Shown here piece after piece: positions 1 to 17,762 of a stretch of DNA of 46,738 nucleotides (positions are counted from its first letter, which is position 1; each line of letters starts with the position of its first letter). This DNA is from a virus (lineage: Duplodnaviria; Heunggongvirae; Uroviricota; Caudoviricetes): the IMG/VR virus record IMGVR_UViG_2563366826_000001. One strand, 5' to 3'. Made by a program: the position numbers and the translations under genes. The notes beneath the pieces are model-generated. The model did not search any database. It was given only the letters and a program-made list of their open reading frames with translations, and was not told where the DNA came from.

Positions 1-1284
1 TTACTTCTTCGCCTCTGCAACCACTTTACTACCCACGCCGCGGTTATTGTATTCCCACATGCGGTTGTAGTTAGTGTCATTCAGATTGCGCTGTATTTCG
101 TCGTTATCATCTACGCTGCCGGTATTACCCGCAAACGGACGATTAGAGATCACCGCATCGGCCCACGGTTTAGCCGTGTTAAAACCTTCGTTGATGGCGC
201 TATCACGGATCACCACCTGACCGTTGGTATTGGCATCAACATCCAGCGAGCGGCCCAGTTGCGCCACACCATCACCGAAAGCATTGAAACGGCTGTTTAC
301 GGCGAGGAAACCGTAGTAAATGTTGGACAGCGTAGCCGGTGCAAACACATACGCTTCTTGCTGAGTACGTGAGTTCACCACGCGGAATTCGGTGTTATCG
401 AACACCACTGCGCCGCGACCAGAAACGATATCCACATCCCCTTCAATGTAGCTGTTGGTCACCAGCGTACGCGGCTGACGGTTGGTTTCCAGACGGTTCT
501 GCACACCGCTGTTGGTGACAAAGAAGGTGTTCTGACGACCGAGAATGTTAACGTTGTTAATCTGTACCTGGTCACCATCAGTACGCAGTGCCACCGCCGG
601 ATGGTTACCTGCATCTACGCTATCGCCCAGCGTGTTTTCGATGGTCAGATTTTGCAGTTGCAGGCCATTGTTTTGTGACCAGAAGACCGCAGAGCAGAGA
701 ACACCGATACTGTCGCTGCGTTTGCTCTGGCAGCTATCGTACATATACCACGCTGGTTTACCTGGCATATATTTGCCGCGCGGGTTGACGTCGTGACGCC
801 AGTCGGCAGGGCTCATGCCCCCATCAAGGGAAAGCCCAATCTTCACATCAATCGGTTTTTCACCTGTACCGTACAGAGTAATTCCACCCGGAGCAGCAGG
901 GACATACACCGTTCCCTGATACTCACCAGGCATCACGGCAATATACTGGCGCTTGTTAGTGCGCTTGATAATTGCCGCATCTACCGCCGCCTGAATCGTG
1001 GTATGCGTTACACCTTGAGTACCCGCCGGGCCGACAACAAAGTCAGGTTGCGCAGGCAGGGTAATCGGGGAAGGATTCCACGCTGCAGCACCTGGTGTCA
1101 GGGATGCAAAATAGTGTTGAGCATCGAAATTCTGCGCTTCTTTTGCCGACAGAATCGGGCGAGAAGAGGTACCAGGCGCGGTTTGATCAGAAGGACGTTG
1201 ATCGGGTGGTGTTGAGCTACAGGCGGTCAGCGTCACGCCAAAAGCCAATGCCAGCGCCAGACGGGAAACTGAAAATGTGTTCAC
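1..1284 (-). CDS. ybhC: Host outer-membrane lipoprotein YbhC (pectinesterase-family), full length 427 aa
   Basis: 427-aa ORF with signal peptide and lipobox (LTAC); recognised as the E. coli gene that flanks the lambda attachment site. Confidence 0.85.
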   Translation of the reverse strand: MNTFSVSRLALALAFGVTLTACSSTPPDQRPSDQTAPGTSSRPILSAKEAQNFDAQHYFASLTPGAAAWNPSPITLPAQPDFVVGPAGTQGVTHTTIQAAVDAAIIKRTNKRQYIAVMPGEYQGTVYVPAAPGGITLYGTGEKPIDVKIGLSLDGGMSPADWRHDVNPRGKYMPGKPAWYMYDSCQSKRSDSIGVLCSAVFWSQNNGLQLQNLTIENTLGDSVDAGNHPAVALRTDGDQVQINNVNILGRQNTFFVTNSGVQNRLETNRQPRTLVTNSYIEGDVDIVSGRGAVVFDNTEFRVVNSRTQQEAYVFAPATLSNIYYGFLAVNSRFNAFGDGVAQLGRSLDVDANTNGQVVIRDSAINEGFNTAKPWADAVISNRPFAGNTGSVDDNDEIQRNLNDTNYNRMWEYNNRGVGSKVVAEAKK

Positions 1285-1320
1285 AGGTTGCTCCGGGCTA
1301 TGAAATAGAAAAATGAATCC

Positions 1321-1440
1321 GTTGAAGCCTGCTTTTTTATACTAAGTTGGCATTATAAAAAAGCATTGCTTATCAATTTGTTGCAACGAACAGGTCACTA
1401 TCAGTCAAAATAAAATCATTATTTGATTTCAATTTTGTCC
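1321..1440. other. attL: Prophage attL (B-O-P'), core GCTTTTTTATACTAA at 1331-1345 followed by lambda P' arm
   Basis: Exact lambda core followed by P'-arm-like sequence (gttggcattataaaaaagcattgcttatcaatttgttgcaacgaacaggtcactatcagtcaaaataaaatcattatttg), directly adjacent to int. Confidence 0.88.
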
Positions 1441-2489
1441 CACTCCCTGCCTCTGTCATCACGATACTGTGATGCCATGGTGTCCGACTTATGCCCGAGA
1501 AGATGTTGAGCAAACTTATCGCTTATCTGCTTCTCATAGAGTCTTGCAGACAAACTGCGCAACTCGTGAAAGGTAGGCGGATCCCCTTCGAAGGAAAGAC
1601 CTGATGCTTTTCGTGCGCGCATAAAATACCTTGATACTGTGCCGGATGAAAGCGGTTCGCGACGAGTAGATGCAATTATGGTTTCTCCGCCAAGAATCTC
1701 TTTGCATTTATCAAGTGTTTCCTTCATTGATATTCCGAGAGCATCAACATGCAATGCTGTTGGGATGGCAATTTTTACGCCTGTTTTGCTTTGCTCGACA
1801 TAAAGATATCCATCTACGATATCAGACCACTTCATTTCGCATAAATCACCAACTCGTTGCCCGGTAACAACAGCCAGTTCCATTGCAAGTCTGAGCCAAC
1901 ATGGTGATGATTCTGCTGCTTGATAAATTTTCAGGTATTCGTCAGCCGTAAGTCTTGATCTCCTTACCTCTGATTTTGCTGCGCGAGTGGCAGCGACAGG
2001 GTTTGTTGTTATATGGCCTTCAGCTATTGCCTCTCGGAATGCATCGCTCAGTGTTGATCTGATTAACTTGGCTGACGCCGCCTTGCCCTCGTCTATGTAT
2101 CCATTGAGCATTGCCGCAATTTCTTTTGTGGTGATGTCTTCAAGTGGAGCATCAGGCAGACCCCTCCTTATTGCTTTAATTTTGCTCATGTAATTTATGA
2201 GTGTCTTCTGCTTGATTCCTCTGCTGGCCAGGATTTTTTCGTAGCGATCAAGCCATGAATGTAACGTAACGGAATTATCACTGTTGATTCTCGCTGTCAG
2301 AGGCTTGTGTTTGTGTCCTGAAAATAACTCAATGTTGGCCTGTATAGCTTCAGTGATTGCGATTCGCCTGTCTCTGCCTAATCCAAACTCTTTACCCGTC
2401 CTTGGGTCCCTGTAGCAGTAATATCCATTGTTTCTTATATAAAGGTTAGGGGGTAAATCCCGGCGCTCATGACTTCGCCTTCTTCCCAT
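1419..2489 (-). CDS. int: Tyrosine integrase Int (356 aa)
   Basis: N-terminus MGRRRSHERRDLPPNLYIRNNGYYCYRDPRTGKEF matches lambda Int; same length; adjacent to attL. Confidence 0.97.
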   Translation of the reverse strand: MGRRRSHERRDLPPNLYIRNNGYYCYRDPRTGKEFGLGRDRRIAITEAIQANIELFSGHKHKPLTARINSDNSVTLHSWLDRYEKILASRGIKQKTLINYMSKIKAIRRGLPDAPLEDITTKEIAAMLNGYIDEGKAASAKLIRSTLSDAFREAIAEGHITTNPVAATRAAKSEVRRSRLTADEYLKIYQAAESSPCWLRLAMELAVVTGQRVGDLCEMKWSDIVDGYLYVEQSKTGVKIAIPTALHVDALGISMKETLDKCKEILGGETIIASTRREPLSSGTVSRYFMRARKASGLSFEGDPPTFHELRSLSARLYEKQISDKFAQHLLGHKSDTMASQYRDDRGREWDKIEIK

Positions 2490-2685
2490 TTCTGATCCTC
2501 TTCAAAAGGCTACCTGTTACTGGTCGATTTAAGTCAACCTTTACCGCTGATTCGTGGAACAGATACTCTCTTCCATCCTTAACCGGAGGAGGGAATATCC
2601 TGCACTCGCGTACCCATCGACGAACTGTTTCAAGGCTTCTTGGGCGTCGCTGGCGTGCGTTCCACTCCTGAAGTGTCAAGTACAT
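2467..2685 (-). CDS. xis: Excisionase Xis (72 aa)
   Basis: MYLTLQEWNARQRRPRSLETVRRWVRECRIFPPP matches lambda Xis; overlaps int 5' end as in lambda. Confidence 0.95.
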   Translation of the reverse strand: MYLTLQEWNARQRRPRSLETVRRWVRECRIFPPPVKDGREYLFHESAVKVDLNRPVTGSLLKRIRNGKKAKS

Positions 2686-2703
2686 CGCAAAGTCTCCGCA
2701 ATT

Positions 2704-2732
2704 ACACGCAAGAAAAAACCGCCATCAGGCGG
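2704..2732 (-). terminator. Candidate rho-independent terminator (ccgcc-tgat-ggcgg + T6) overlapping stop of the small ORF
   Basis: Minus-strand hairpin gccgcctgatggcgg followed by tttttt. Confidence 0.4.
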
Positions 2733-2892
2733 CTTGGTGTTCTTTCAGTTCTTCAATTCGAATATTGGTTACGTCTGCATGTGCTATCTGCGCCCACAGC
2801 ATCCAGTGGTCATAGCAGTCGCTGATGTTCTCGGCTTCGATAACTCTGTTGAATGGTTCTCCATTCCATTCACCTGTGACTCGGAAGTGCAT
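2725..2892 (-). CDS. Small hypothetical protein (55 aa, MHFRVTGEWNGEPFNRV...)
   Basis: Manually translated ATG-to-TGA ORF below the 60-aa cutoff of the ORF track; position equivalent to lambda ea8.5 region. Confidence 0.4.
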   Translation of the reverse strand: MHFRVTGEWNGEPFNRVIEAENISDCYDHWMLWAQIAHADVTNIRIEELKEHQAA

Positions 2893-2974
2893 TTATCATC
2901 TCCATAAAAAAAACTCGCCGTAGCGAGTTCAGATATAATTTTCACCAAAGGCAGTAGTTGCTTTATGCTAAGAA

Positions 2975-3403
2975 TTATTCAATATCTATTCCTGTAATAT
3001 CTTTTATTTTTTTTCTTGCAAAGCCTTTTGCTAGTGATTTTGAAACACTCATAAGAGTACCAATTCCCTCATCCTTAAAGTTTGTTTTTATAGCTTGCCA
3101 GACCTCCTTTTGACGTAAGTCAGCAATAAAATCATGCCCTCTTGCTGTCAACCTCAGTGGTACTTCGAGCCAACTATATTCAACACCTTCCCCTAACTCG
3201 TTGGACATTATATGACCGAACCCAGGTTTTCCATCAACCCTAACTATTAATTCGTAGTCACATAATAATCGCATATGGAAAATAAAATTTTGGTCATATC
3301 TATTAAAGCCATTATCCTCTAGTTCACTAAGCATCGTGTCAGGGCCATAAGTTTTTTCGAATGCGATAAGTAGATCTTTTAGATATTGCTGGTCTAATTT
3401 CAT
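2975..3403 (-). CDS. Hypothetical protein (142 aa), AT-rich accessory gene
   Basis: ORF with GGAGG RBS 8 nt upstream; low GC relative to flanking lambda genes. Confidence 0.6.
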   Translation of the reverse strand: MKLDQQYLKDLLIAFEKTYGPDTMLSELEDNGFNRYDQNFIFHMRLLCDYELIVRVDGKPGFGHIMSNELGEGVEYSWLEVPLRLTARGHDFIADLRQKEVWQAIKTNFKDEGIGTLMSVSKSLAKGFARKKIKDITGIDIE

Positions 3404-3431
3404 TGCCGCCTCCGTGACATGTCACAGAGAT

Positions 3432-3770
3432 TTATATCATTAATTTTGTTTCGTGCCAGCCTTTGGTCACCCAGTATTGTGAGTCACCATTACACGGGCA
3501 TGAATTAACAGGAACTCTCTCGCCGCACTTACGGCAACGTTTTCTGCTAATCGATTTTATACGCCAGCGCACACGTGCATCATCCTGGCGGCTCAGTAAC
3601 GCTATGTACTCACCAAACTCGTAAGGCGCACGCCTGAAGCGGCGCGTGGCTCAGTTACGCTCCAGCATTTCAATTTCCTGAGCATCAAGTACAAGCTCCA
3701 GCTTACGCATACCGGATGATGCTTGCTTGGCTCTCTGATCGGCTTTGCGCTCTGCTGCTGATTTAGTCAT
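3432..3770 (-). pseudogene. Small zinc-ribbon-like ORF interrupted by an in-frame TGA (39 aa + TGA at 3651-3653 + 72 aa); pseudogene or opal read-through candidate
   Basis: Manual translation MTKSAAERKADQRAKQASSGMRKLELVLDAQEIEMLERN-TGA-ATRRF...CRKCGERVPVNSCPCNG...; single frame throughout. Confidence 0.35.
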
Positions 3771-4063
3771 TCTGCTTTTCCTGCATCAGGAGAAAGACAA
3801 TCATGGCGGCGCGGATACTTCCGGTATCTTTTTACGCGATATTACCCTTCAATGACACATACAAGAAGACAGCCATCAGCAGGAATGAGTGAGGAATCGA
3901 CAACCAGTAACGCTTAATTATCTATAGTGTCGTATTTGCTTCATAAAATATGGCGAATAACACAAAGCCCGCAGCAGCTCATTGTGCGGACTTTTCTTAT
4001 ACTTACTTCCTAGAGATAATTCTATGGAGGCATTAAATTAATGCTGTCATTGGTAATATCATA

Positions 4064-4678
4064 TTATCTAAAAGTCTTTCCACTTTTAACGTCTAGATAT
4101 ATTCTGTTCGACAACGTCATTCCTCCGCAATATGTGAAATAGATGTTTTCACCCTTATTGCTTGATGCCATCCACCCTCCAACTTCCTTAAAATCGCTCT
4201 CCGTGCAGACACCTTCACTTATTAACTTCCTAGCTGCCGAAGAAAACTCTTTTTTGTATATACGGTAGTCATCAGATCCTTTGATTAAGGTATCATTTCT
4301 GCTCGCATTTTCAGCAGGATCTGATGGCCTTTCACTGCTAAGATCACTAAGTTTAACCCATTCTGAAAACTTGCCATTAACGATTCCGTTTTTTCTTGTG
4401 CAGGATTTATTACCTTCTTTAATATATTCGCTTTCCCCTCCCACACATGAGGCTGAATATGGCTCAGTTATACGAACCCATTCACCTTTTTTTTCTAGAA
4501 AATCTACGCCTTCCCTGAAAAATAGTTTCCCAGCCACTCCACATTTACTTGAAGGGCAGGTATGTCTTTCCGTTCGATCAACAACAACCCAAAGTTTTGA
4601 TTCATTTTTTGCCATTGCCGATGGTATTTGAGATGAGAAAATTAACGTAAGCCCTAAAATTAGTGTTGATTTTTTCAT
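4064..4678 (-). CDS. Secreted Cys-rich hypothetical protein (204 aa) with N-terminal signal peptide
   Basis: MKKSTLILGLTLIFSSQIPSAMA signal-peptide-like N-terminus, multiple Cys; strongly AT-rich. Confidence 0.65.
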   Translation of the reverse strand: MKKSTLILGLTLIFSSQIPSAMAKNESKLWVVVDRTERHTCPSSKCGVAGKLFFREGVDFLEKKGEWVRITEPYSASCVGGESEYIKEGNKSCTRKNGIVNGKFSEWVKLSDLSSERPSDPAENASRNDTLIKGSDDYRIYKKEFSSAARKLISEGVCTESDFKEVGGWMASSNKGENIYFTYCGGMTLSNRIYLDVKSGKTFR

Positions 4679-9200: not shown

Positions 9201-9222
9201 TAATTAAATTAGTCAGTTTTTT

Positions 9223-10029
9223 CTACTGTAACATAGAGGCAGCATTCAGCATCTTTTCGTAATATGAACGCATGTCTTCTTTGCTATATGCGTTGATAAG
9301 ATTATCAGCGTGTTTTTCCAGTAGATTTAGCTGCTGTTTTGCTGACTTTTCTTGTGCTGTCGTTTCAGCGGCAAAAATTACAAATGAATCAATATTTGAA
9401 TTGTATAATTCGTAGGCTTTAGTAATTGTTAAAACACTTATCGCAGCTTCACCCATTTGTTTTTTTATATTTTCAGAACGAAAATCTAATGTTTCTGTAA
9501 GATGGTATTTGCCATTTTTTAACAAAAAATCTGCAACTAACCCTTCTTCATTACTAATTGGATAATTAGCTACGATTTTATGTTGGGAAAGATCTTCAAA
9601 ATACTTACTGAAAATTCCATGTTGTATAAAGGTGGATTTTAATTCAGAAAAAACCTTTTTTTTCAACTGCTTATGTGGTTGTTTTTGTGGGTTTACTAAC
9701 CGATTCATTAGATCAGTAACTTTAGCTTCGTAATCTTCGTTGGCTTGAAGAGTGAACATGCCAAATGACGATAACGATAATGCTCCCTTAAAAAGACAAG
9801 GAAGAAGTTCAGCATTGTTGATTTTTTGTGACAAATCAAAAAGCGAGGTTGAAAGATCCTCTAAGTAATCTAAGGTAAGATCTTTGTCAATCGCTTTAAG
9901 TTTTGAAACTGAATTGAGCATACGTACGTCTATGTCAGAGTCATGGTAAACGATCAAACCAACGTTAATCGTTTCACCTTTCTCTAAGTTCGGTGTAACT
10001 CTGATTAAGCTGTATTTGAAAGTTTTCAA
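9223..10029 (-). CDS. DUF3037-like protein (268 aa), second gene of the cI-downstream module
   Basis: N-terminus MKTFKYSLIRVTPNLEKGETINVGLIVY resembles the DUF3037 N-terminal signature (from memory); TTG start overlapping upstream TGA (TTGA); AT-rich. Confidence 0.55.
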   Translation of the reverse strand: MKTFKYSLIRVTPNLEKGETINVGLIVYHDSDIDVRMLNSVSKLKAIDKDLTLDYLEDLSTSLFDLSQKINNAELLPCLFKGALSLSSFGMFTLQANEDYEAKVTDLMNRLVNPQKQPHKQLKKKVFSELKSTFIQHGIFSKYFEDLSQHKIVANYPISNEEGLVADFLLKNGKYHLTETLDFRSENIKKQMGEAAISVLTITKAYELYNSNIDSFVIFAAETTAQEKSAKQQLNLLEKHADNLINAYSKEDMRSYYEKMLNAASMLQ

Positions 10030-10874
10030 GATGTTATCTCCAGTCTTATGGCATTTAGCCTATCGATTCGCTCCTCGCTGTCCCACCACTTCAAAAAATA
10101 CTCCTTATGCATTGGTGGCATCCATGCTTCAGGCATAGAGTTAAGTATATCAGATATAGTCTCAACTCCAATTTTTTCAATTTTGTCAAGGACAGATAAT
10201 GCGCACTTTCTCAGATCATCAGTGTCGCCAATGAATTGTTTAGCAATCGTCCAGTTTGTTGTTGTACTGGAGTCTGTTGGTAGTATATGAGGGGTATTTC
10301 GTGGCCAGCCTATAACAAAAGAGCTTAGACTAAAATCGAATGTTTTAACTATAACATTGCCTCGGGTGTTTTCCATGTATAAGTAGTTGTTGAGGTGTCT
10401 GTCAATGTTATATACAAATTGATCAAATGCATAAATTGCCCAGAGTTGCTTCTTTAAGGATTCAGAAGCATTTGAGAGCAAATTTATCCATTGAGGACTA
10501 TTGAGACCAGATTTCCAGGCTGAAAACTCTATGCGAGAGCCAAAAACATACTCCCCATTAGCAATACACTTGAGAATTTTGCACACAGGTGTAGCGATGC
10601 CGCATTTTTCAGCTAAATTTGTGCAAAACCATTCCGCTGCCGGTACTTGAGTTGGGTTTTGTACAGGAAAAGGTGGGGTGGAACGCATGCTTTTAACTGC
10701 ATATTCCATTTCATCAGTGGCAATAGCGAAACCAGAAAGGTGTGCAGTGCCTAAGCTTGAAGGTGTATATTCATGAAATTCTAATTCAAACAAACTTCCT
10801 TGCTCTGGTTTCACTTCATCAGTGTTTGGCTCTTGTTCTTTCGTCATCAACTTTTTTCCCCAAATCGAAGACAT
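10026..10874 (-). CDS. Atypical kinase-like protein (282 aa) with PI3/4-kinase/HipA-type catalytic loop
   Basis: YNIDRHLNN (D158-R-H-x-x-N) followed 22 residues later by TFDFS, matching catalytic-loop/DFG-like spacing; AAGAGG RBS; AT-rich; 47 nt downstream of cI. Confidence 0.6.
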   Translation of the reverse strand: MSSIWGKKLMTKEQEPNTDEVKPEQGSLFELEFHEYTPSSLGTAHLSGFAIATDEMEYAVKSMRSTPPFPVQNPTQVPAAEWFCTNLAEKCGIATPVCKILKCIANGEYVFGSRIEFSAWKSGLNSPQWINLLSNASESLKKQLWAIYAFDQFVYNIDRHLNNYLYMENTRGNVIVKTFDFSLSSFVIGWPRNTPHILPTDSSTTTNWTIAKQFIGDTDDLRKCALSVLDKIEKIGVETISDILNSMPEAWMPPMHKEYFLKWWDSEERIDRLNAIRLEITS

Positions 10875-10920
10875 GCGGACCTCTTAAATTTGAACAACAT
10901 CATAATGATTAGCTAATCCG

Positions 10921-11613
10921 CTACCCATGCTTCCTATACGTCTGCGGCATGCTCCCAATAACCTTACCGAAGATGAACACCCGGTTCATCTCGTCTTTCT
11001 CGATCGGGTCCCACGGTGAGTAGCTCTTGTTATCAGAGATAACCAGCAGCTTATCCTTCATCATTTGCAGACGCTTTACATGGGCTGTGTCGTCGTACAG
11101 AAACGCATAGATACCATCACCGTCGAAAGATTTAACCGTGATATCAACGAACAGCAGATCACCTGGTTCGATCGTTCCTGACATGCTGTCACCACGCACG
11201 TTAATGATGCGGATATTTTCCGCCTTCCTGCCATCGAACATGTGACGAGCATCGTCAAACGAGTACTCAACCGAGCGTAGAACTTCTACAAACTCACGGT
11301 TGATTACACCCGGCCCGGCACTGACTTCTATATCAAGAACGTCAATTTTGAAGTATTTGGAATGGCTGACAGCAGGCTTCCCTGATTGTTGACCGTCATT
11401 TCTCATCGGGCCTATGCCTGATGAGAGCCATTCTGTTCGAACACCCAATGCATTAGCTATTTCAACAATTTTTGTTGAGCCGCGCGCGTTGCCGCTTGTC
11501 AGTCTCCAGATTGTGGGTTGAGCTACGCCAGACGCCTTTGCAAGAGCGCCTTGAGACATTCCAGATTGTTCCATCGCTAGGTTTAAGCGATCAGCAAGAG
11601 TTTCTTTTTTCAT
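10921..11613 (-). CDS. cI: CI-type prophage repressor (HTH + S24 LexA-like peptidase), about 230 aa from the ATG at 11613
   Basis: N-terminal HTH (LSQGALAKASGVAQPTIWRL), Ala-Gly cleavage site (SAGPG), GDSM serine and KR lysine motifs; divergent from cro; not lambda cI sequence. Confidence 0.85.
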   Translation of the reverse strand: MKKETLADRLNLAMEQSGMSQGALAKASGVAQPTIWRLTSGNARGSTKIVEIANALGVRTEWLSSGIGPMRNDGQQSGKPAVSHSKYFKIDVLDIEVSAGPGVINREFVEVLRSVEYSFDDARHMFDGRKAENIRIINVRGDSMSGTIEPGDLLFVDITVKSFDGDGIYAFLYDDTAHVKRLQMMKDKLLVISDNKSYSPWDPIEKDEMNRVFIFGKVIGSMPQTYRKHG

Positions 11614-11975: not shown

Positions 11976-12521
11976 ATGACTATGCAACCACTTACATACC
12001 AACAGACTAGCGGATTTAGCCCGACTGCGGTGATAAATCGTTCTCAAACAAAACAGGCGCCAGGCCACGAAAAAATCCGTGATGCCGTTCGCGCCTGGTC
12101 GGCTGCAGATAATCAGGATGTTGTTGCCGCACTCATTGTGAATGAGTATCGGGAGCAGGGCGGCGGCACCATCGATTTCCCTGATGATGTCAGTCGTGCA
12201 CGCCAGAAGCTGTTCCGCTTCCTCGATAACAAATTCGATTCTGAAAAATACCGAAATAACGTGCGTGAACTGACCCCGGCAATTCTGGCGGTACTACCGC
12301 TGGAATATCGCGGCCACCTGGTTGAGCAGGATAGCTACATGGCTCGGCTGGCTGAAATGGAAAAGGAACTCAGTGAGGCAAAACAGGCTGTCATTCTCAA
12401 CGCACCACGCCACCAGAAACTGAAGGAGATGAGTGAAGGCATTGTGTCGATGTTTCGTGTGGACCCGGATCTGGCTGGTCCACTGATGGCGATGGTCACC
12501 ACCATGCTGGGGGCAATATGA
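11976..12521 (+). CDS. YdaT-like protein in the cII position (181 aa), putative lysis-lysogeny regulator
   Basis: Position between cro-like gene and O; YdaT-like assignment from memory, tentative. Confidence 0.5.
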   Translation: MTMQPLTYQQTSGFSPTAVINRSQTKQAPGHEKIRDAVRAWSAADNQDVVAALIVNEYREQGGGTIDFPDDVSRARQKLFRFLDNKFDSEKYRNNVRELTPAILAVLPLEYRGHLVEQDSYMARLAEMEKELSEAKQAVILNAPRHQKLKEMSEGIVSMFRVDPDLAGPLMAMVTTMLGAI

Positions 12522-12607
12522 CAGGTTCGGAAATGGCGAAAGCCGGTCTGCGCGAACAGAACCGACTTTCAGGTGCAAATCGTAACACACTCATTGCGGG
12601 AGGAATT

Positions 12608-13537
12608 ATGGCAAACACTGCTGAGATATTCAATTTTCCAGTGCCGGATGAGGCACAAAAGGAGCGGCGCGTGGCAGATCTCGATGATGGTTATACGCGC
12701 ATTGCAAATGAGTTGCTGGAAGCTGTGATGCTGGCCGGATTAACACAGCACCAGCTTCTGGTCTTTCTGGCTGTCATGCGCAAAACATATGGCTTTAATA
12801 AAAAACAGGATTGGGTTAGCAACGAGCAACTTTCCGAATTAACCGGGATATTGCCGCACAAGTGTTCTGCTGCAAAAAGTGTTCTGGTAAAGCGTGGGAT
12901 TTTTATTCAGAGCGGGCGGAATATCGGCATTAATAATGTGGTCAGTGAATGGTCAACATTACCCGAATCAGGTAAGAAAAATAAAGTTTACCTGAAAGAG
13001 GTAAATTTACCTGAATCAGGTAAGAAAAGTTTACCCAAATCAGGTAAAGGCGTTTACCCGAATCAGGTAAACACAAAAGACAAACTAACAAAAGACAATA
13101 TAAAACCTTTTTCGTCCGAGAATTCTGGCGAATCCTCTGACCAACCAGAAAACGATCTTCCTGTGGTGAAACCAGATGCTGCAATTCAGAGCGGCAGCAA
13201 GTGGGGGACAGCAGAAGACCTGACCGCCGCAGAGTGGATGTTTGACATGGTGAAGACCATCGCGCCATCAGCCAGAAAACCGAATTTTGCAGGATGGGCT
13301 AACGATATCCGCCTGATGCGTGAACGTGACGGACGTAACCACCGCGACATGTGCGTGCTGTTCCGCTGGGCATGCCAGGACAACTTTTGGTCTGGTAACG
13401 TGCTGAGCCCGGCCAAACTTCGCGACAAGTGGACCCAACTCGAAATCAACCGTAACAAACAACAGGCTGGCGTGACAGCCGGAAAATCAAAACTCGACCT
13501 GACAAACACAGACTGGATTTACGGGGTGGATCTATGA
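12608..13537 (+). CDS. O: Replication initiator O (lambda O family), about 309 aa from ATG at 12608
   Basis: VADLDDGYTRIANELLEA...LAVMRKTYGFNK resembles lambda O N-domain; C-terminal P-interaction domain conserved; contains ori iterons. Confidence 0.9.
   Translation: MANTAEIFNFPVPDEAQKERRVADLDDGYTRIANELLEAVMLAGLTQHQLLVFLAVMRKTYGFNKKQDWVSNEQLSELTGILPHKCSAAKSVLVKRGIFIQSGRNIGINNVVSEWSTLPESGKKNKVYLKEVNLPESGKKSLPKSGKGVYPNQVNTKDKLTKDNIKPFSSENSGESSDQPENDLPVVKPDAAIQSGSKWGTAEDLTAAEWMFDMVKTIAPSARKPNFAGWANDIRLMRERDGRNHRDMCVLFRWACQDNFWSGNVLSPAKLRDKWTQLEINRNKQQAGVTAGKSKLDLTNTDWIYGVDL
12958..13110. repeat. ori: Replication origin inside O: five about 19-bp iterons (TTTACCNGAATCAGGTAAA type) followed by an A/T-rich tract
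   Basis: Direct repeats at about 12958-13071 then an AT-rich stretch, same architecture as lambda ori but different iteron sequence. Confidence 0.75.
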
Positions 13538-14235
13538 AAAACATCGCCGCACAGATGATTAACTTTGACCGTGAGCAGATGCGTCGGATCGCCAACAACA
13601 TGCCGGAACAGTACGACGAAAAGCCGCAGGTACAGCAGGTAGCGCAGATCATCAACGGTGTATTCAGCCAGTTGCTGGCAACTTTCCCTGCGAGCCTGGC
13701 TAACCGTGACCAGAACGAACTGAACGAAATTCGCCGCCAGTGGGTTCTGGCTTTCCGGGAAAACGGGATCACCACAATGGAACAGGTTAACGCTGGAATG
13801 CGCGTAGCCCGTCGGCAGAATCGACCATTCCTGCCATCACCCGGGCAGTTTGTCGCCTGGTGCCGGGAAGAAGCATCCGTTACCGCCGGGCTGCCAAACG
13901 CCAGCGAGCTGGTTGATATGGTTTACGAGTATTGCCGGAAGCGCGGGCTGTATCCGGATGCAGAGTCTTATCCGTGGAAATCAAACGCGCACTACTGGCT
14001 GGTTACCAACCTGTATCAGAACATGCGGGCCAATGCGTTGACTGACGCGGAATTACGGCGCAAGGCTGCCGATGAACTGTCCTGTATGACCGCACGAATT
14101 AACCGTGGTGAGGCTATACCTGAACCAGTAAAACAACTTCCTGTCATGGGCGGTAGACCACTTAACCGGGCTCAGGCTCTGGCGAAGATCGCAGAAATCA
14201 AAGCTAAGTTCGGACTGAAAGGAGCCAGTGTATGA
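13534..14235 (+). CDS. P: Replication protein P (DnaB helicase loader), 233 aa
   Basis: MKNIAAQMINFDREQMRRIANNMPEQYDEKPQVQQVAQIINGVF matches lambda P. Confidence 0.96.
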   Translation: MKNIAAQMINFDREQMRRIANNMPEQYDEKPQVQQVAQIINGVFSQLLATFPASLANRDQNELNEIRRQWVLAFRENGITTMEQVNAGMRVARRQNRPFLPSPGQFVAWCREEASVTAGLPNASELVDMVYEYCRKRGLYPDAESYPWKSNAHYWLVTNLYQNMRANALTDAELRRKAADELSCMTARINRGEAIPEPVKQLPVMGGRPLNRAQALAKIAEIKAKFGLKGASV

Positions 14236-14525
14236 CAGGCAAAGAGGCAATTCTTCACTACCTGAAAACGCACCGGACTTTCTGCGCGCCGGATGTAGCT
14301 GCGGCAACAGGCGTGACTGTAACCAGCATCAATCAGGCAGCAGCCAAAATGGCACGGGCAGGAATCCTGGTCGTTGATGGCAAGGTCTGGCGAAAGGTGT
14401 ATTACCGGTTCGCTACCAGGGAGGAGCGGGAAGGAAAGGTGAGCACGAACCTGATTTTCAAGGAGTGTCGCCAGAGTGCCGTGATGAAACGGGTATTGAT
14501 GTTTTTGGGGGGGGTAGGGGTATAA
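14232..14525 (+). CDS. ren: Ren (97 aa)
   Basis: MTGKEAILHYLKTHRTFCAPDVAAATGVTVTSINQAAAKMARAGILVV matches lambda Ren. Confidence 0.9.
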   Translation: MTGKEAILHYLKTHRTFCAPDVAAATGVTVTSINQAAAKMARAGILVVDGKVWRKVYYRFATREEREGKVSTNLIFKECRQSAVMKRVLMFLGGVGV

Positions 14526-14813
14526 GCGAAACGTTATGAGTGTGTGGGTATTCGTGCCATTGCGATGTGGTAGAGAGTGCTGAGGGCGTCATGGTTGTGT
14601 TGCGAAGACTACGTTGCACTTGAGCAGGATCTTGCAGAATTTGAGCGCGAGTTCCGTGTTGCTGATGCGACTATACCCTCGATGTAGAGGAACTTAATTA
14701 GCTGATTGTAATTCAATATGCCTACTAAGACCGGTTGGGTATGAACTAGTAAAGGCTGCAAAATCCTATAGAGTGTTAACGCAACCAAAAACGTTAAGCA
14801 CGGAGAAAAAAAC

Positions 14814-15566
14814 ATGGATCCTAAATTACTGTATGCCACGTTTAAACGAAATGACGCACCAGCTTGGCGCTGCCCGAACTGTATGAATGAAACACTGGAG
14901 ATTGTCGCTGATAGTTTTGTAGAAACTGATTCAAGCGCAACAACTCAGTTTAGAGATGAAGTATGGTTTGATGAGGAAATGTCGGGAGGAGTATTCAGTT
15001 GCGTGCTGCGCTGTACCCGCCAAGCCTGTCAGGAGAATGTTGCTTTGTCTGGGCAGGTTGTTGCTGTAGAATGCTTCAATGACGAAATGACGGAGCGTTG
15101 GTATGTTTCTGGTTTCCGTCCTAAGTATTTCTATCCACCACTTCCTCTATTCCTGTTTCCTGAAAAGTGCCCTGAAGATATAGCTGATCTCTTGGCGGAA
15201 GTATCAGCTCTGATCCCCTCGCACCCAGCTTCAGCGGTGAACACCATGAGAACCATACTGGAGATGATGCTTGATAGTCTTGATGTACCAAGAGAGAAAA
15301 CAGTTAAAGGCAAGATAATACGTCTTTCTACGCATGAAAGAATCACAAATTATTCAGATAAACTGGGATCAAATAAAGATGCATTCATGGCGTTAAAGTG
15401 GTTGGGGAATCACGGCAGTCATGGAGGGATTAAAGTCACAAGGTCCTCTATTAATGATGCCTGTATTCTCATTGGTCATTTGATTGACTTCTTATTCTTA
15501 GAAAGCCCGGATGTAACTATTCATATTGAACGGATAAACAACGTGTATGCACCCAAAAAGGAGTAA
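14814..15566 (+). CDS. Zinc-ribbon protein with C-terminal DUF4145/HEPN-like domain (250 aa)
   Basis: Cys clusters C20-x2-C23 and C63/C67-x3-C71; C-terminal LKWLGNHGSHGG motif (GNxxxHG); AT-rich insertion between ren and ninB. Confidence 0.55.
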   Translation: MDPKLLYATFKRNDAPAWRCPNCMNETLEIVADSFVETDSSATTQFRDEVWFDEEMSGGVFSCVLRCTRQACQENVALSGQVVAVECFNDEMTERWYVSGFRPKYFYPPLPLFLFPEKCPEDIADLLAEVSALIPSHPASAVNTMRTILEMMLDSLDVPREKTVKGKIIRLSTHERITNYSDKLGSNKDAFMALKWLGNHGSHGGIKVTRSSINDACILIGHLIDFLFLESPDVTIHIERINNVYAPKKE

Positions 15567-15577
15567 AACGTAACGCC

Positions 15578-15826
15578 ATGTCGAAGCGGAATATTGCCGC
15601 TAAAACACAAGAAGAGCGCGAGAAGGTTAACGTTGACCTTGCTGTCTCCTGAGTTACCTACAAAGAGCGCCTTAATATACCGGTTATTGCCGAAGCGGTG
15701 ATGCGTGAGCAGCCTGAGCATTTGCGGGACTATTTTTTGGAGCGGCCACGACATTACCGCGAGCAGAGCATCGCGCTGCCCAAGGCATCCGCTCCTCGAC
15801 ATCTTAAGCAGGAAGGTGAAAAATGA
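15578..15826 (+). pseudogene. Small ORF interrupted by in-frame TGA (24 aa + TGA at 15650-15652 + 57 aa); alternatively a 41-aa protein from ATG 15701; ATGA-coupled to downstream gene
   Basis: Manual translation [84 protein letters not shown]. Confidence 0.3.
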
Positions 15827-16305
15827 TAAGTGCAGAAGGACTGCAGCGGTTACTTAATTTATCGGAGCCTCCATCTGATGAACTGATTGATGTTTATCTT
15901 CAATTCTGCATGATTTTTCCTAGGGTCGAGCAAAGTTTTTTTGGTGGCTTTGCTAAGGGGGAAGACAGTTTAAATTATGCGCGAACGTTACTTGACGCCG
16001 GGATAAAGGTGCCCAACGAACTTTTTCACGATTTTAAGCAGAGATACATTTTGAACGGGGATGCGCAGGAAAGACTTGACGCCCTCTGTGTCGGTCGAGA
16101 GAGAGATAGGCGGGGAATAGTTAATGGACTTCAAAATGACGCAGCAACAGATCTAAACACCATGTCTACAGTATTAAAGATAGTTATAAGGATAAGAAAT
16201 AACCTTTTCCACGGAAATAAAGACGCTTATCTTTTTGTTGATTCTCAAGAGCAAGCGCAACTATTGAGGTGGTGCGTGAGATTTCTCCAAGGATTATTAA
16301 ATTAA
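15823..16305 (+). CDS. HEPN-motif protein (160 aa), putative RNase/toxin
   Basis: R125-NNLF-H130-G (RIRNNLFHG, nt about 16189-16215) matches the Rx4-6H HEPN signature; start overlaps upstream ORF stop. Confidence 0.6.
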
Positions 16306-16494: not shown

Positions 16495-16950
16495 GTGAAC
16501 CTCCCACAAGACGGCATCAAATTACATCGCGGCAACTTCACCGCTATCGGCCAGCAGATCCAGCCTTATCTGGAGGAAGGCAAATGCTTTCGCATGGTGC
16601 TTAAACCGTGGCGCGAGAGACGCAGTCTTTCCCAGAATGCACTCAGCCACATGTGGTACAGCGAAATCAGTGAATACCTCATCAGCAGGGGTAAAACGTT
16701 CGCCACTCCAGCTTGGGTAAAAGATGCTCTCAAACACACATATCTCGGTTATGAAACCAAAGACCTGGTTGATGTCGTAACCGGTGATATCACCACTATC
16801 CAGTCGTTACGCCATACCTCCGATCTTGATACCGGAGAGATGTATGTCTTCCTGTGTAAGGTTGAAGCCTGGGCGATGAATATTGGCTGCCACCTGACTA
16901 TTCCGCCGAGCTGCGAGTTCCAGCTGCTGCGCGATAAGCAGGAGGCGTAA
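16495..16950 (+). CDS. ninB: NinB-family recombination protein (151 aa), GTG start
   Basis: [20 protein letters not shown] matches the NinB RSLxQN signature; GGAGG RBS; precedes ninE. Confidence 0.75.
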
Positions 16951-17120
16951 TGGCTACACCGCTTATTCGTGTCATGAACGGGCACATTTACAGAGTACCA
17001 AATCGTCGTAAGCGTAAACCTGAGCTGAAGCCTTCCGAAATACCAACACTGCTCGGATATACCGCCAGCCTGGTTGATAAAAAATGGTTGCGACTGGCAG
17101 CAAGGAGGAATCATGGCTGA
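16950..17120 (+). CDS. ninE: NinE-like small protein (56 aa)
   Basis: Manual translation [56 protein letters not shown]; basic, NinE-sized, at the NinE position. Confidence 0.65.
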   Translation: MATPLIRVMNGHIYRVPNRRKRKPELKPSEIPTLLGYTASLVDKKWLRLAARRNHG

Positions 17121-17403
17121 TTTGAGAAAAGCAGCGCGTGGTCGGGAATGCCAGGTAAGAATCCCTGGCGTATGTAATGGCAACCCTGAAACGTCTGTAC
17201 TGGCACATATCCGGCTGACTGGATTGTGCGGCACCGGTACCAAACCGCCAGACCTGATTGCCACCATTGCATGTTCTGCCTGCCACGACGAAATCGACCG
17301 CCGCACACATTTTGTCGATGCTGCATATGCAAAAGAATGCGCGCTGGAAGGTATGGCGAGAACACAGGTTATCTGGCTGAAAGAGGGGGTTATTAAGGCG
17401 TGA
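17113..17403 (+). CDS. ybcO: DLP12 YbcO-like putative nuclease (DUF1364), 96 aa
   Basis: [37 protein letters not shown]... matches DLP12 ybcO from memory. Confidence 0.8.
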
Positions 17404-17762
17404 ATACCTACAGCATCACATTACCCTGGCCTCCGAGCAATAATCGCTATTACCGCCATAATCGCGGGCGCACGCACGTCAGCGCAGAGGGGCAGGCATA
17501 CCGCGATAACGTCGCCCGAATCATTAAAAACGCAATGCTGGATATCGGCCTGGCTATGCCTGTGAAAATCCGCATTGAGTGCCACATGCCGGATCGCCGT
17601 CGCCGTGACCTGGATAATCTGCAAAAAGCCGCTTTTGACGCACTCACTAAAGCAGGTTTCTGGCTGGATGATGCTCAGGTCGTTGATTACCGCGTTGTGA
17701 AGATGCCTGTTACCAAAGGTGGGAGGCTGGAACTGACCATCACCGAAATGGGGAATGAATGA
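17400..17762 (+). CDS. rusA: Holliday-junction resolvase RusA (120 aa), GTG start
   Basis: [38 protein letters not shown] matches E. coli DLP12 RusA. Confidence 0.92.

Follow-up and report, generated by a model that had tools for sequence, protein, structure and literature searches.

The locus analysed here raises the question of whether two neighbouring genes for HEPN-type proteins in a prophage belong to one system or are unrelated passengers in the same slot. The window, by which we mean the whole stretch of 46,738 nucleotides that was analysed (IMG/VR record IMGVR_UViG_2563366826_000001), is an Escherichia coli lambdoid prophage with 100% identity to E. coli O15:H18 of sequence type 69 (ST69) across the region in question. 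Between its ren and ninB homologues lies an insert of approximately 1.8 kb (positions 14526-16305), in which the initial annotation had seen AT-rich DNA coding for a 250-amino acid (aa) protein with an N-terminal cysteine cluster, a small open reading frame (ORF) with an in-frame TGA and a 160-aa protein with a HEPN signature, and had proposed that the two larger proteins might act together as a module. We consider it probable that the insert instead consists of three independently inherited genes in an accessory ("moron" or defence) slot, in which a dead hot/theta gene is flanked by two single-gene candidates for immunity against superinfection, both of HEPN type but unrelated to each other: a zinc-finger-like/DUF4145 protein of 250 aa and a small HEPN-like protein of 160 aa.

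The three genes are found in different company in different genomes. Homologues of the 160-aa protein with 74-80% identity are present in prophages of Klebsiella, Salmonella and Enterobacter, where theta lies upstream and the DUF4145 gene is missing. In E. coli A3024 (locus L011, 1761-3394), a phosphoribosyltransferase (PRTase) and NADAR gene pair is located at the position of the DUF4145 gene, while the 160-aa gene stays beside a deleted theta remnant. The A3024 NADAR protein shares 82% identity with DS-32B, which is part of an experimentally validated system, and a PRTase-like and NADAR pair also sits in the slot at the IMG/VR loci L082-L084. As this pair stands in place of the DUF4145 gene, the gap between P/ren and theta can be regarded as an exchangeable defence slot, and the DS-32-like pair and other cargo at related loci bear out the suggestion of the initial annotation that the region is variable. 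Solitary DUF4145 homologues with 39-69% identity are present in a P2-like prophage and in integrase-linked islands. In addition, a comparison of the 160-aa family with the DUF4145 family using hhalign returned a probability of 0.2, that is, no profile similarity. The three genes are therefore not one system, and the idea that the two HEPN-type proteins form a heterodimer, with the protein lacking the arginine as an inactive or partner subunit, is unsupported by their independent inheritance and the hhalign result.

A further combination is seen in an Enterobacter mori prophage (L010, 4756-7776), in which a homologue of the 160-aa gene is followed by a gene for a 633-aa NACHT-domain protein, with a DinI gene further on. 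The NACHT protein is another defence-like cargo at a ren/ninB-type junction.

The insert has a G+C content of 0.441, as compared to 0.511 in the left (12518-14525) and 0.519 in the right flank (16495-17762), in agreement with the AT-richness noted initially. Broken down by gene, the values are 0.43 for the DUF4145 gene, 0.41 for the 160-aa gene and 0.514 for the theta remnant. The segment is carried at 95-100% identity by 56 of 5,426 complete E. coli genomes. The ORFs that had been described were all found, and the insert and its borders are organised as follows, with labels from the Prokaryotic Genome Annotation Pipeline (PGAP) where available:

14232-14525, plus strand: ren homologue, left flank of the insert (phrog_142, Ren-like, E = 1.7e-39; PGAP 'protein ren')
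14526-14813, no strand: non-coding leader of 288 bp, located 5' of the DUF4145 gene (G+C content 0.45; without an ORF that has homologues)
14814-15566, plus strand: 250-aa zinc-finger-like/DUF4145 (HEPN) protein (PF13643, AlphaFold2 model)
15578-15826, plus strand: Hot/theta pseudogene (phmmer against P1 Hot and E. coli theta; PGAP)
15823-16305, plus strand: 160-aa small HEPN-like protein, predicted to be all-helical (WP_000622057.1; phrog_27260, family alignments)
16495-16950, plus strand: NinB/YbcN homologue, right flank of the insert (phrog_72, E = 1.9e-51; PF05772; PGAP ybcN)

The small ORF in the middle aligns over its full length with the P1 Hot protein (1se7; phmmer E = 2.7e-30) and with E. 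coli theta (E = 1.5e-17), and is labelled 'DNA polymerase III subunit theta, internal stop' by PGAP. The initial annotation had rightly reported the in-frame TGA and the ATGA coupling to the 160-aa gene, but it missed this identity. The TGA, at positions 15650-15652, replaces Gly25, a residue that is invariant in 8 homologues. The 52 theta copies found in E. coli represent two alleles: 34 match exactly an 81-bp probe spanning the TGA, and among the 18 copies of the second allele, all six that were examined contain the TGA plus a frameshift. A third lineage, represented by A3024, carries an internal deletion, and theta of Enterobacter mori is stopped independently at codon 63. The small ORF is a pseudogene of the Hot/theta family and not a functional member. 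We also considered that the TGA might be a site of programmed read-through or recoding. This is ruled out by the loss of the invariant glycine, by the frameshift and deletion added in sublineages and by the independent stop in Enterobacter. The stop codon of the theta remnant overlaps the start of the 160-aa gene in the sequence ATGA (15823-15826). Gene overlaps are also present at P/ren, ybcN/ninE, ybcO/rusA and rusA/ylcG within the window, and since ATGA-type overlaps are usual among nin-region genes, the one between the theta remnant and the 160-aa gene is only a weak pointer to a functional connection.

Theta genes nevertheless recur next to members of the 160-aa family. Theta is located within about 400 bp of a family gene at 29 of 57 IMG/VR loci, including members with only 24-30% identity to the 160-aa protein, and the adjacency persists at 33% (L070) and 41% (L066) identity. 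The theta copies beside family genes are often fragmentary. On the other hand, 28 of the 57 phage-borne and all 43 non-enterobacterial family members are without theta, and at four loci theta lies downstream of the family gene. For the reverse view, theta loci were sampled as the best 80 of more than 560 in IMG/VR (L141-L220, theta at about 1501-1740). No family member is present within 1.5 kb of theta at any of these 80 loci, where the genes following theta are small and of at least 10 unrelated kinds. The G+C content of theta is backbone-like (0.51) as compared to 0.41-0.43 in its neighbours. Most simply, theta can be read as a conserved anchor at the border of a slot, just upstream of ninB, in which cargo is exchanged and in which the 160-aa family is one of the recurrent cargoes. 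That theta might be an obligate partner or antitoxin of the family was raised by the adjacency at 33-41% identity and weakened by the reverse sampling of theta loci; the two genes do not show the obligate co-occurrence, with an intact antitoxin, of a type II toxin-antitoxin pair.

At some divergent IMG/VR loci (L127, 2644-3318, and L125, 2722-3393), the start of a HEPN-like gene is joined in frame to theta's C-terminal half or overlaps with it out of frame. This suggests recombination junctions inside theta.

The assignment of the 250-aa protein is based on both sequence profile and predicted structure. Residues 132-216 match PF13643 (DUF4145) with an E-value of 5.2e-12 and 46.1 bits, as compared to a gathering score of 23.1, and the same domain is annotated on all 15 homologues. 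DUF4145 is a HEPN family (PMC3710099). The N-terminal domain contains cysteine residues at positions 20, 23, 63, 67 and 72, the last of which had been placed at position 71 in the initial annotation, and the stretch LKWLGNHGSHGG is found at residues 194-205. C20, C23, C63, C67, C72, K195, G198, N199, S202 and H203 are invariant in the 15 homologues, down to 32% identity. An AlphaFold2 model (predicted local distance difference test score, pLDDT, of 86) consists of a beta-rich N-terminal domain (residues ~1-110) and a helical C-terminal domain (residues 121-250) with the four-helix HEPN fold, in which the motif lies at the terminus of helix 3, running into the loop before helix 4. The helix formed by residues 181-203 terminates at H203. 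The GNxxxHG sequence had been interpreted as a HEPN/DUF4145 signature without the arginine, and this holds true: the basic residue is the invariant Lys195, and its spacing to the invariant His203 is 7 residues, which departs from the Rx4-6H pattern. The motif has been reported to be kept in about 80% of DUF4145 members (PMC3710099). The 250-aa protein is thus a member of the HEPN superfamily by the tests applied, save for a lysine in place of the canonical arginine.

Based on this architecture, we propose that the 250-aa protein is a single-gene sensor-effector of the RAZR/PD-T7-4 type. The N-terminal cysteine-rich beta domain, which probably binds zinc, would recognise a phage protein. The C-terminal DUF4145 HEPN domain would then dimerise or oligomerise and cut RNA, and RNA cutting would abort the infection by a superinfecting phage. 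Sensing, RNase activity and the defence role are all predictions from the domain arrangement and the likeness to RAZR.

Two observations concern other copies of this gene. A homologue with 69% identity is present in a Serratia marcescens P2-like prophage (L057/L058, 4001-6813), where it is located between the tail genes gpV and gpS on the opposite strand and adjoins a Septu-like pair consisting of an AAA_15/AAA_21 ATPase and an HNH protein. This has the look of a defence hotspot within the cluster of P2 tail genes. In the E. coli strains D9 (L132, 1-855) and NCTC9038 (L136, 2-855), IS3-family insertion sequences (IS) truncate the N-terminal cysteine domain at two different positions.

The 160-aa protein contains the R125-NNLF-H130-G sequence as described initially, and its only match is the uncharacterised phrog_27260. 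By an exhaustive profile search, the family was found to comprise about 174 clusters (50% identity) from many phyla, mostly stand-alone proteins of 150-190 aa. In two independent alignments with 60 and 48 relatives sharing 20-41% identity, the residues E36, R74, R123, R125, N127, H130 and K133 are invariant. The family consensus is RLRNNLFHGxK and the invariant pattern can be written as E36...R74-Y75...R123-x-R125-N-N127-x-x-H130-G-x-K133, and the Rx4H-type motif is therefore a property of the whole family. HEPN domains have been described to contain an Rx4-6H motif with a polar residue following the arginine and an acidic residue upstream (PMC3710099), and the 160-aa family has this arrangement in R125-N126-N127-L-F-H130 plus E36. 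Several family members have sub-threshold Pfam matches, namely to HEPN_RiboL-PSP in three (best E-value 1e-4), DUF3644 in four, DUF4209 in one and SWT1_3rd in one. The recurrent weak matches all fall on HEPN-superfamily models, with DUF3644 and DUF4209 being HEPN families (PMC3710099).

The ratio of nonsynonymous to synonymous substitutions (dN/dS) of the 160-aa gene between genera is 0.10-0.16, which indicates purifying selection. Distant family members adjoin, among other genes, those for type I restriction-modification (R-M) subunits and a TIR protein. A defensive role of the gene has been predicted before: in Table S10 of the DefensePredictor study, the cluster of WP_000622057.1 is listed as a "predicted novel defense gene" with a mean log-odds of 12.9, compared to a cutoff of 4, and with an HHblits probability of 59.5 to PD-T4-2_B (RiboL-PSP-HEPN). 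We propose that E36 and the R125-N-N-x-x-H130 constellation would form a metal-independent HEPN RNase site upon homodimerisation and that the protein is probably an abortive-infection or toxin-type effector; fold, activity and role are predicted from the conserved residues. In two Rhodobacterales loci (L029 and L019, about 900-4400), distant family members are found directly after polA, a replication or repair gene coding for DNA polymerase I, and overlap its 3' end.

An unusual pattern of polymorphism is observed in the E. coli copies of the 160-aa gene. Among 28 gap-free full-length copies of the E. coli type, 15 sites segregate, of which seven are synonymous, five missense and three nonsense (K45*, E93* and K133*), and one frameshift allele was found besides. 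In seven flanking genes taken together, none of 201 segregating sites is a nonsense change. The excess has a hypergeometric probability of ~3e-4, a value that is uncorrected for phylogeny and is based on a modest sample. K45* is present in NCTC9038 and A11, the latter of which carries K133* as a second stop, and broken fragments of the gene are common among public assemblies. The recurrent nonsense mutations suggest a cost and would fit a toxic product of the 160-aa gene, which is a frequent trait of abortive-infection effectors.

A number of observations weigh against an immunity function of the two proteins. The lysine at the position of the catalytic arginine could mean that the HEPN domain of the 250-aa protein is inactive or not an RNase. 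Neither protein was matched by PADLOC at E<=1, a check that the initial annotation had proposed, and NCBIfam searches gave no match for either. Searches of the PDB with both families, by sequence and by profile, yielded chance-level matches only. The proposed domain searches and structure predictions succeeded for the 250-aa protein; the 160-aa protein itself is without a match in Pfam, and its AlphaFold2 model (pLDDT 44, from a shallow alignment of 9 sequences) was unusable. The HEPN assignment of the 160-aa protein is accordingly weak, since it is made from the motif, the sub-threshold matches and the HHblits probability, which is only 59.5. We presume that the genes are expressed in the lysogen, and a scan for promoters and terminators gave no signal above shuffled expectation for the insert or the leader. 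No DNA or protein homologue is present in 50,697 deposited phage genomes, and defective prophages of the DLP12 type are numerous among the carriers. The interruption of the DUF4145 gene by IS elements, seen in two strains, and the broken copies of the 160-aa gene would also agree with simple decay in such defective prophages. Finally, what we say about the function of both proteins is drawn from sequence and prediction.

Several other explanations have to be weighed against independent cargo. The insert could encode one operonic HEPN system, in which the Rx4H site of the 160-aa RNase is completed or regulated by the Arg-less DUF4145 protein, whose part would be that of an inactive or partner subunit. 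The three genes lie tightly packed on the same strand with an ATGA overlap, both outer genes are AT-rich, HEPN domains function as dimers (PMC13017515, PMC3710099) and the trio is kept together in about 50 E. coli genomes. However, these copies are 95-100% identical and so represent a single recent lineage and not independent conservation, and among the loci examined the DUF4145 and 160-aa genes never co-occur outside that lineage. Given also that a DS-32-like pair replaces the DUF4145 gene in A3024, that a defunct theta gene makes up the middle ORF and that the two families are without profile similarity, a single system is very improbable and already largely refuted by the gene distribution. 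Theta and the 160-aa protein could alternatively be a toxin-antitoxin-like pair, in which the theta-like protein neutralises a HEPN-like toxin, with the antitoxin crippled in E. coli and the toxin being lost by nonsense mutations. Order and size of the genes and the 4-bp overlap are as in type II pairs, theta adjoins family genes with merely 24-41% identity (L066, L070, L105, L110, L120 and L124) and is often fragmentary there, and the nonsense excess is seen in E. coli, where theta is dead. Such a pairing is difficult to reconcile with the absence of the family gene from all 80 best theta loci and the 10 or more unrelated genes that follow theta, with the lack of theta beside about half of the phage-borne and all 43 non-enterobacterial members, and with its downstream position at four loci. 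Moreover, most sampled E. coli copies combine an intact 160-aa ORF with a theta gene stopped at codon 25, and the partner of Hot and theta is already known and is a different one, the epsilon subunit of DNA polymerase III (PDB 2ido, 2ae9). We therefore regard a toxin-antitoxin-like pair as quite unlikely. We likewise attach little probability to a looser functional link behind the positional association, which extends over family members with 24-100% identity; in such a link a theta-like protein, or a mimicked epsilon-theta interaction, would restrain or license the small HEPN-like RNase. If such a link existed, the nonsense excess in E. coli would be the aftermath of the lost theta restraint, and it would represent a previously unknown coupling between a mimic of a replisome subunit and an RNase toxin or defence effector.

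The genes might also serve the lytic programme of the phage instead of defence, with the HEPN RNases acting in host RNA shut-off or RNA processing, theta supporting replication, and transcription from pR through the nin region taking place only after induction. The location in the early right operon, between replication and nin genes on the same strand and with no distinct promoter or terminator, would fit this, and theta homologues are common at this place in lambdoid prophages. Both HEPN genes are, however, patchy in distribution and rich in AT, a validated defence system can take their place, their relatives outside phages are found in defence contexts with R-M, TIR or Septu-like neighbours, the DefensePredictor score is high, and the genes are absent from all deposited phage isolates. 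A lytic function is in our opinion unlikely. Alternatively, the insert might be decaying cargo without a function, in a prophage that is largely defective and DLP12-like. All E. coli copies of theta that were examined are pseudogenes, nonsense and frameshift alleles of the 160-aa gene and an IS-interrupted DUF4145 gene occur in some strains, and public assemblies commonly contain truncated ORF fragments. Yet the 160-aa gene is under purifying selection across genera (dN/dS 0.10-0.16), the catalytic-type residues are invariant over hundreds of millions of years of divergence, both ORFs are intact in the window, and the 160-aa gene alone, in contrast to its flanking genes, shows the nonsense excess. 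Mere decay therefore appears quite unlikely, and we favour independently inherited cargo with two HEPN-type immunity candidates.

Outside the insert, two further features of the window were noted. Beside a cI-like XRE repressor gene (about 10918-11610), the minus strand carries two overlapping genes (9220-10844), one for a 272-aa HipA-like kinase (PF20613, E = 1e-6), the other for a DUF3037 protein of 267 aa. Both have weak PADLOC matches to PDC-M66A/B, and their position next to the repressor is rexAB-like. The pair has the same architecture as DS-6, a HipA-like kinase with a DUF3037/DUF1829 protein that was validated in the DefensePredictor paper. Near the 3' end of ren there is a run of eight G residues (14505-14520). 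As compared to the otherwise identical loci L001 and L003, ren of the window differs by indels of 3 and 1 bases, whose positions are unmapped and may fall in the G run, and these alter the C-terminus or the length of the gene (294, 297 or 309 nt as annotated). The G run could be slippage-prone sequence or a sequencing error. An Rfam search of the leader upstream of the DUF4145 gene gave nothing above threshold.

If the predictions hold, the slot would provide E. coli with two further, as yet uncharacterised, single-gene HEPN effectors of prophage-encoded immunity. The 160-aa protein stands for a minimal HEPN-like family without a Pfam model, which is widespread and which a machine-learning screen for defence genes ranks high. 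Mining of lambdoid prophages for further defence or counter-defence cargo could use the theta (hot) gene upstream of ninB as a marker.

How, then, do the three genes compare with known systems? The middle ORF is similar to P1 Hot and E. coli HolE over its whole length, but differs in being broken by the TGA at the invariant Gly25, to which sublineages add a frameshift or a deletion. For the 160-aa family, the closest likeness is to the RiboL-PSP-HEPN (PF18735; PD-T4-2_B), DUF3644/EC042_2821 and ApeA-like families (Anantharaman et al. 2013, PMC3710099). Shared features are the R-[N]-x3-H motif, in which the arginine is followed by a polar residue, an upstream invariant glutamate, small proteins that are all-helical (by prediction for the 160-aa family), locations in prophages and near R-M genes, and the weak sub-threshold matches; one relative of the 160-aa protein is called 'Apea-like HEPN' in UniRef. 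In contrast, no member of the 160-aa family reaches a Pfam gathering score, with the window protein itself being unmatched, and the additional invariant residues R74-Y75, R123, N127, K133 and Q144 set phrog_27260 apart. HepT-MntA and other HEPN toxin-antitoxin pairs resemble the locus in that a small HEPN-type putative RNase follows a small overlapping gene, but the gene upstream of the 160-aa gene is not a nucleotidyltransferase, is not constantly associated and is not intact here.

For the 250-aa protein, two systems are of interest. DS-38 (WP_001313577.1) is likewise an E. coli single-gene system that combines HEPN and zinc-finger domains, and it is experimentally defensive (DefensePredictor). 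It has 366 aa, with an N-terminal HEPN domain containing RNRVVH and C-terminal multi-Cys fingers, and this length and the reversed domain order rule out that the 250-aa protein is DS-38. RAZR (PD-T7-4; ring-activated zinc-finger RNase, Nature 2026, PMC13017515) is composed of a zinc finger and a DUF4145 HEPN domain and acts as a single-gene abortive-infection RNase with the catalytic residues R146 and H154, which becomes active as it assembles around portal or ring proteins of phages. Like RAZR, the 250-aa protein is a single chain in which a Cys-containing domain at the N-terminus precedes a DUF4145-type HEPN domain at the C-terminus, its penultimate HEPN helix ends in a basic residue-x7-His arrangement (K195...H203 as compared to R146...H154), and it is carried by mobile elements, adjoining integrases or within prophages. 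The differences lie in a sequence kinship that is undetectable beyond the Pfam domain, in an N-terminal domain that is ~110 aa long and beta-rich with five invariant cysteines, whereas RAZR has a ~65-aa Cys4 ribbon, and in the lysine where RAZR has the catalytic arginine. The protein was matched neither by the PD-T7-4 model nor by the RAZR chains 9Y9C/9Y6U, and as it has no PADLOC match and no sequence match among solved structures, it is not a close relative of RAZR. If our reading is true, a RAZR-like protein with another sensing domain and a lysine at the catalytic position would probe the need for the HEPN arginine and the diversification of zinc-finger sensors. Taken together, both proteins fall within the well-known HEPN theme of abortive infection and toxins and are not a new kind of system.

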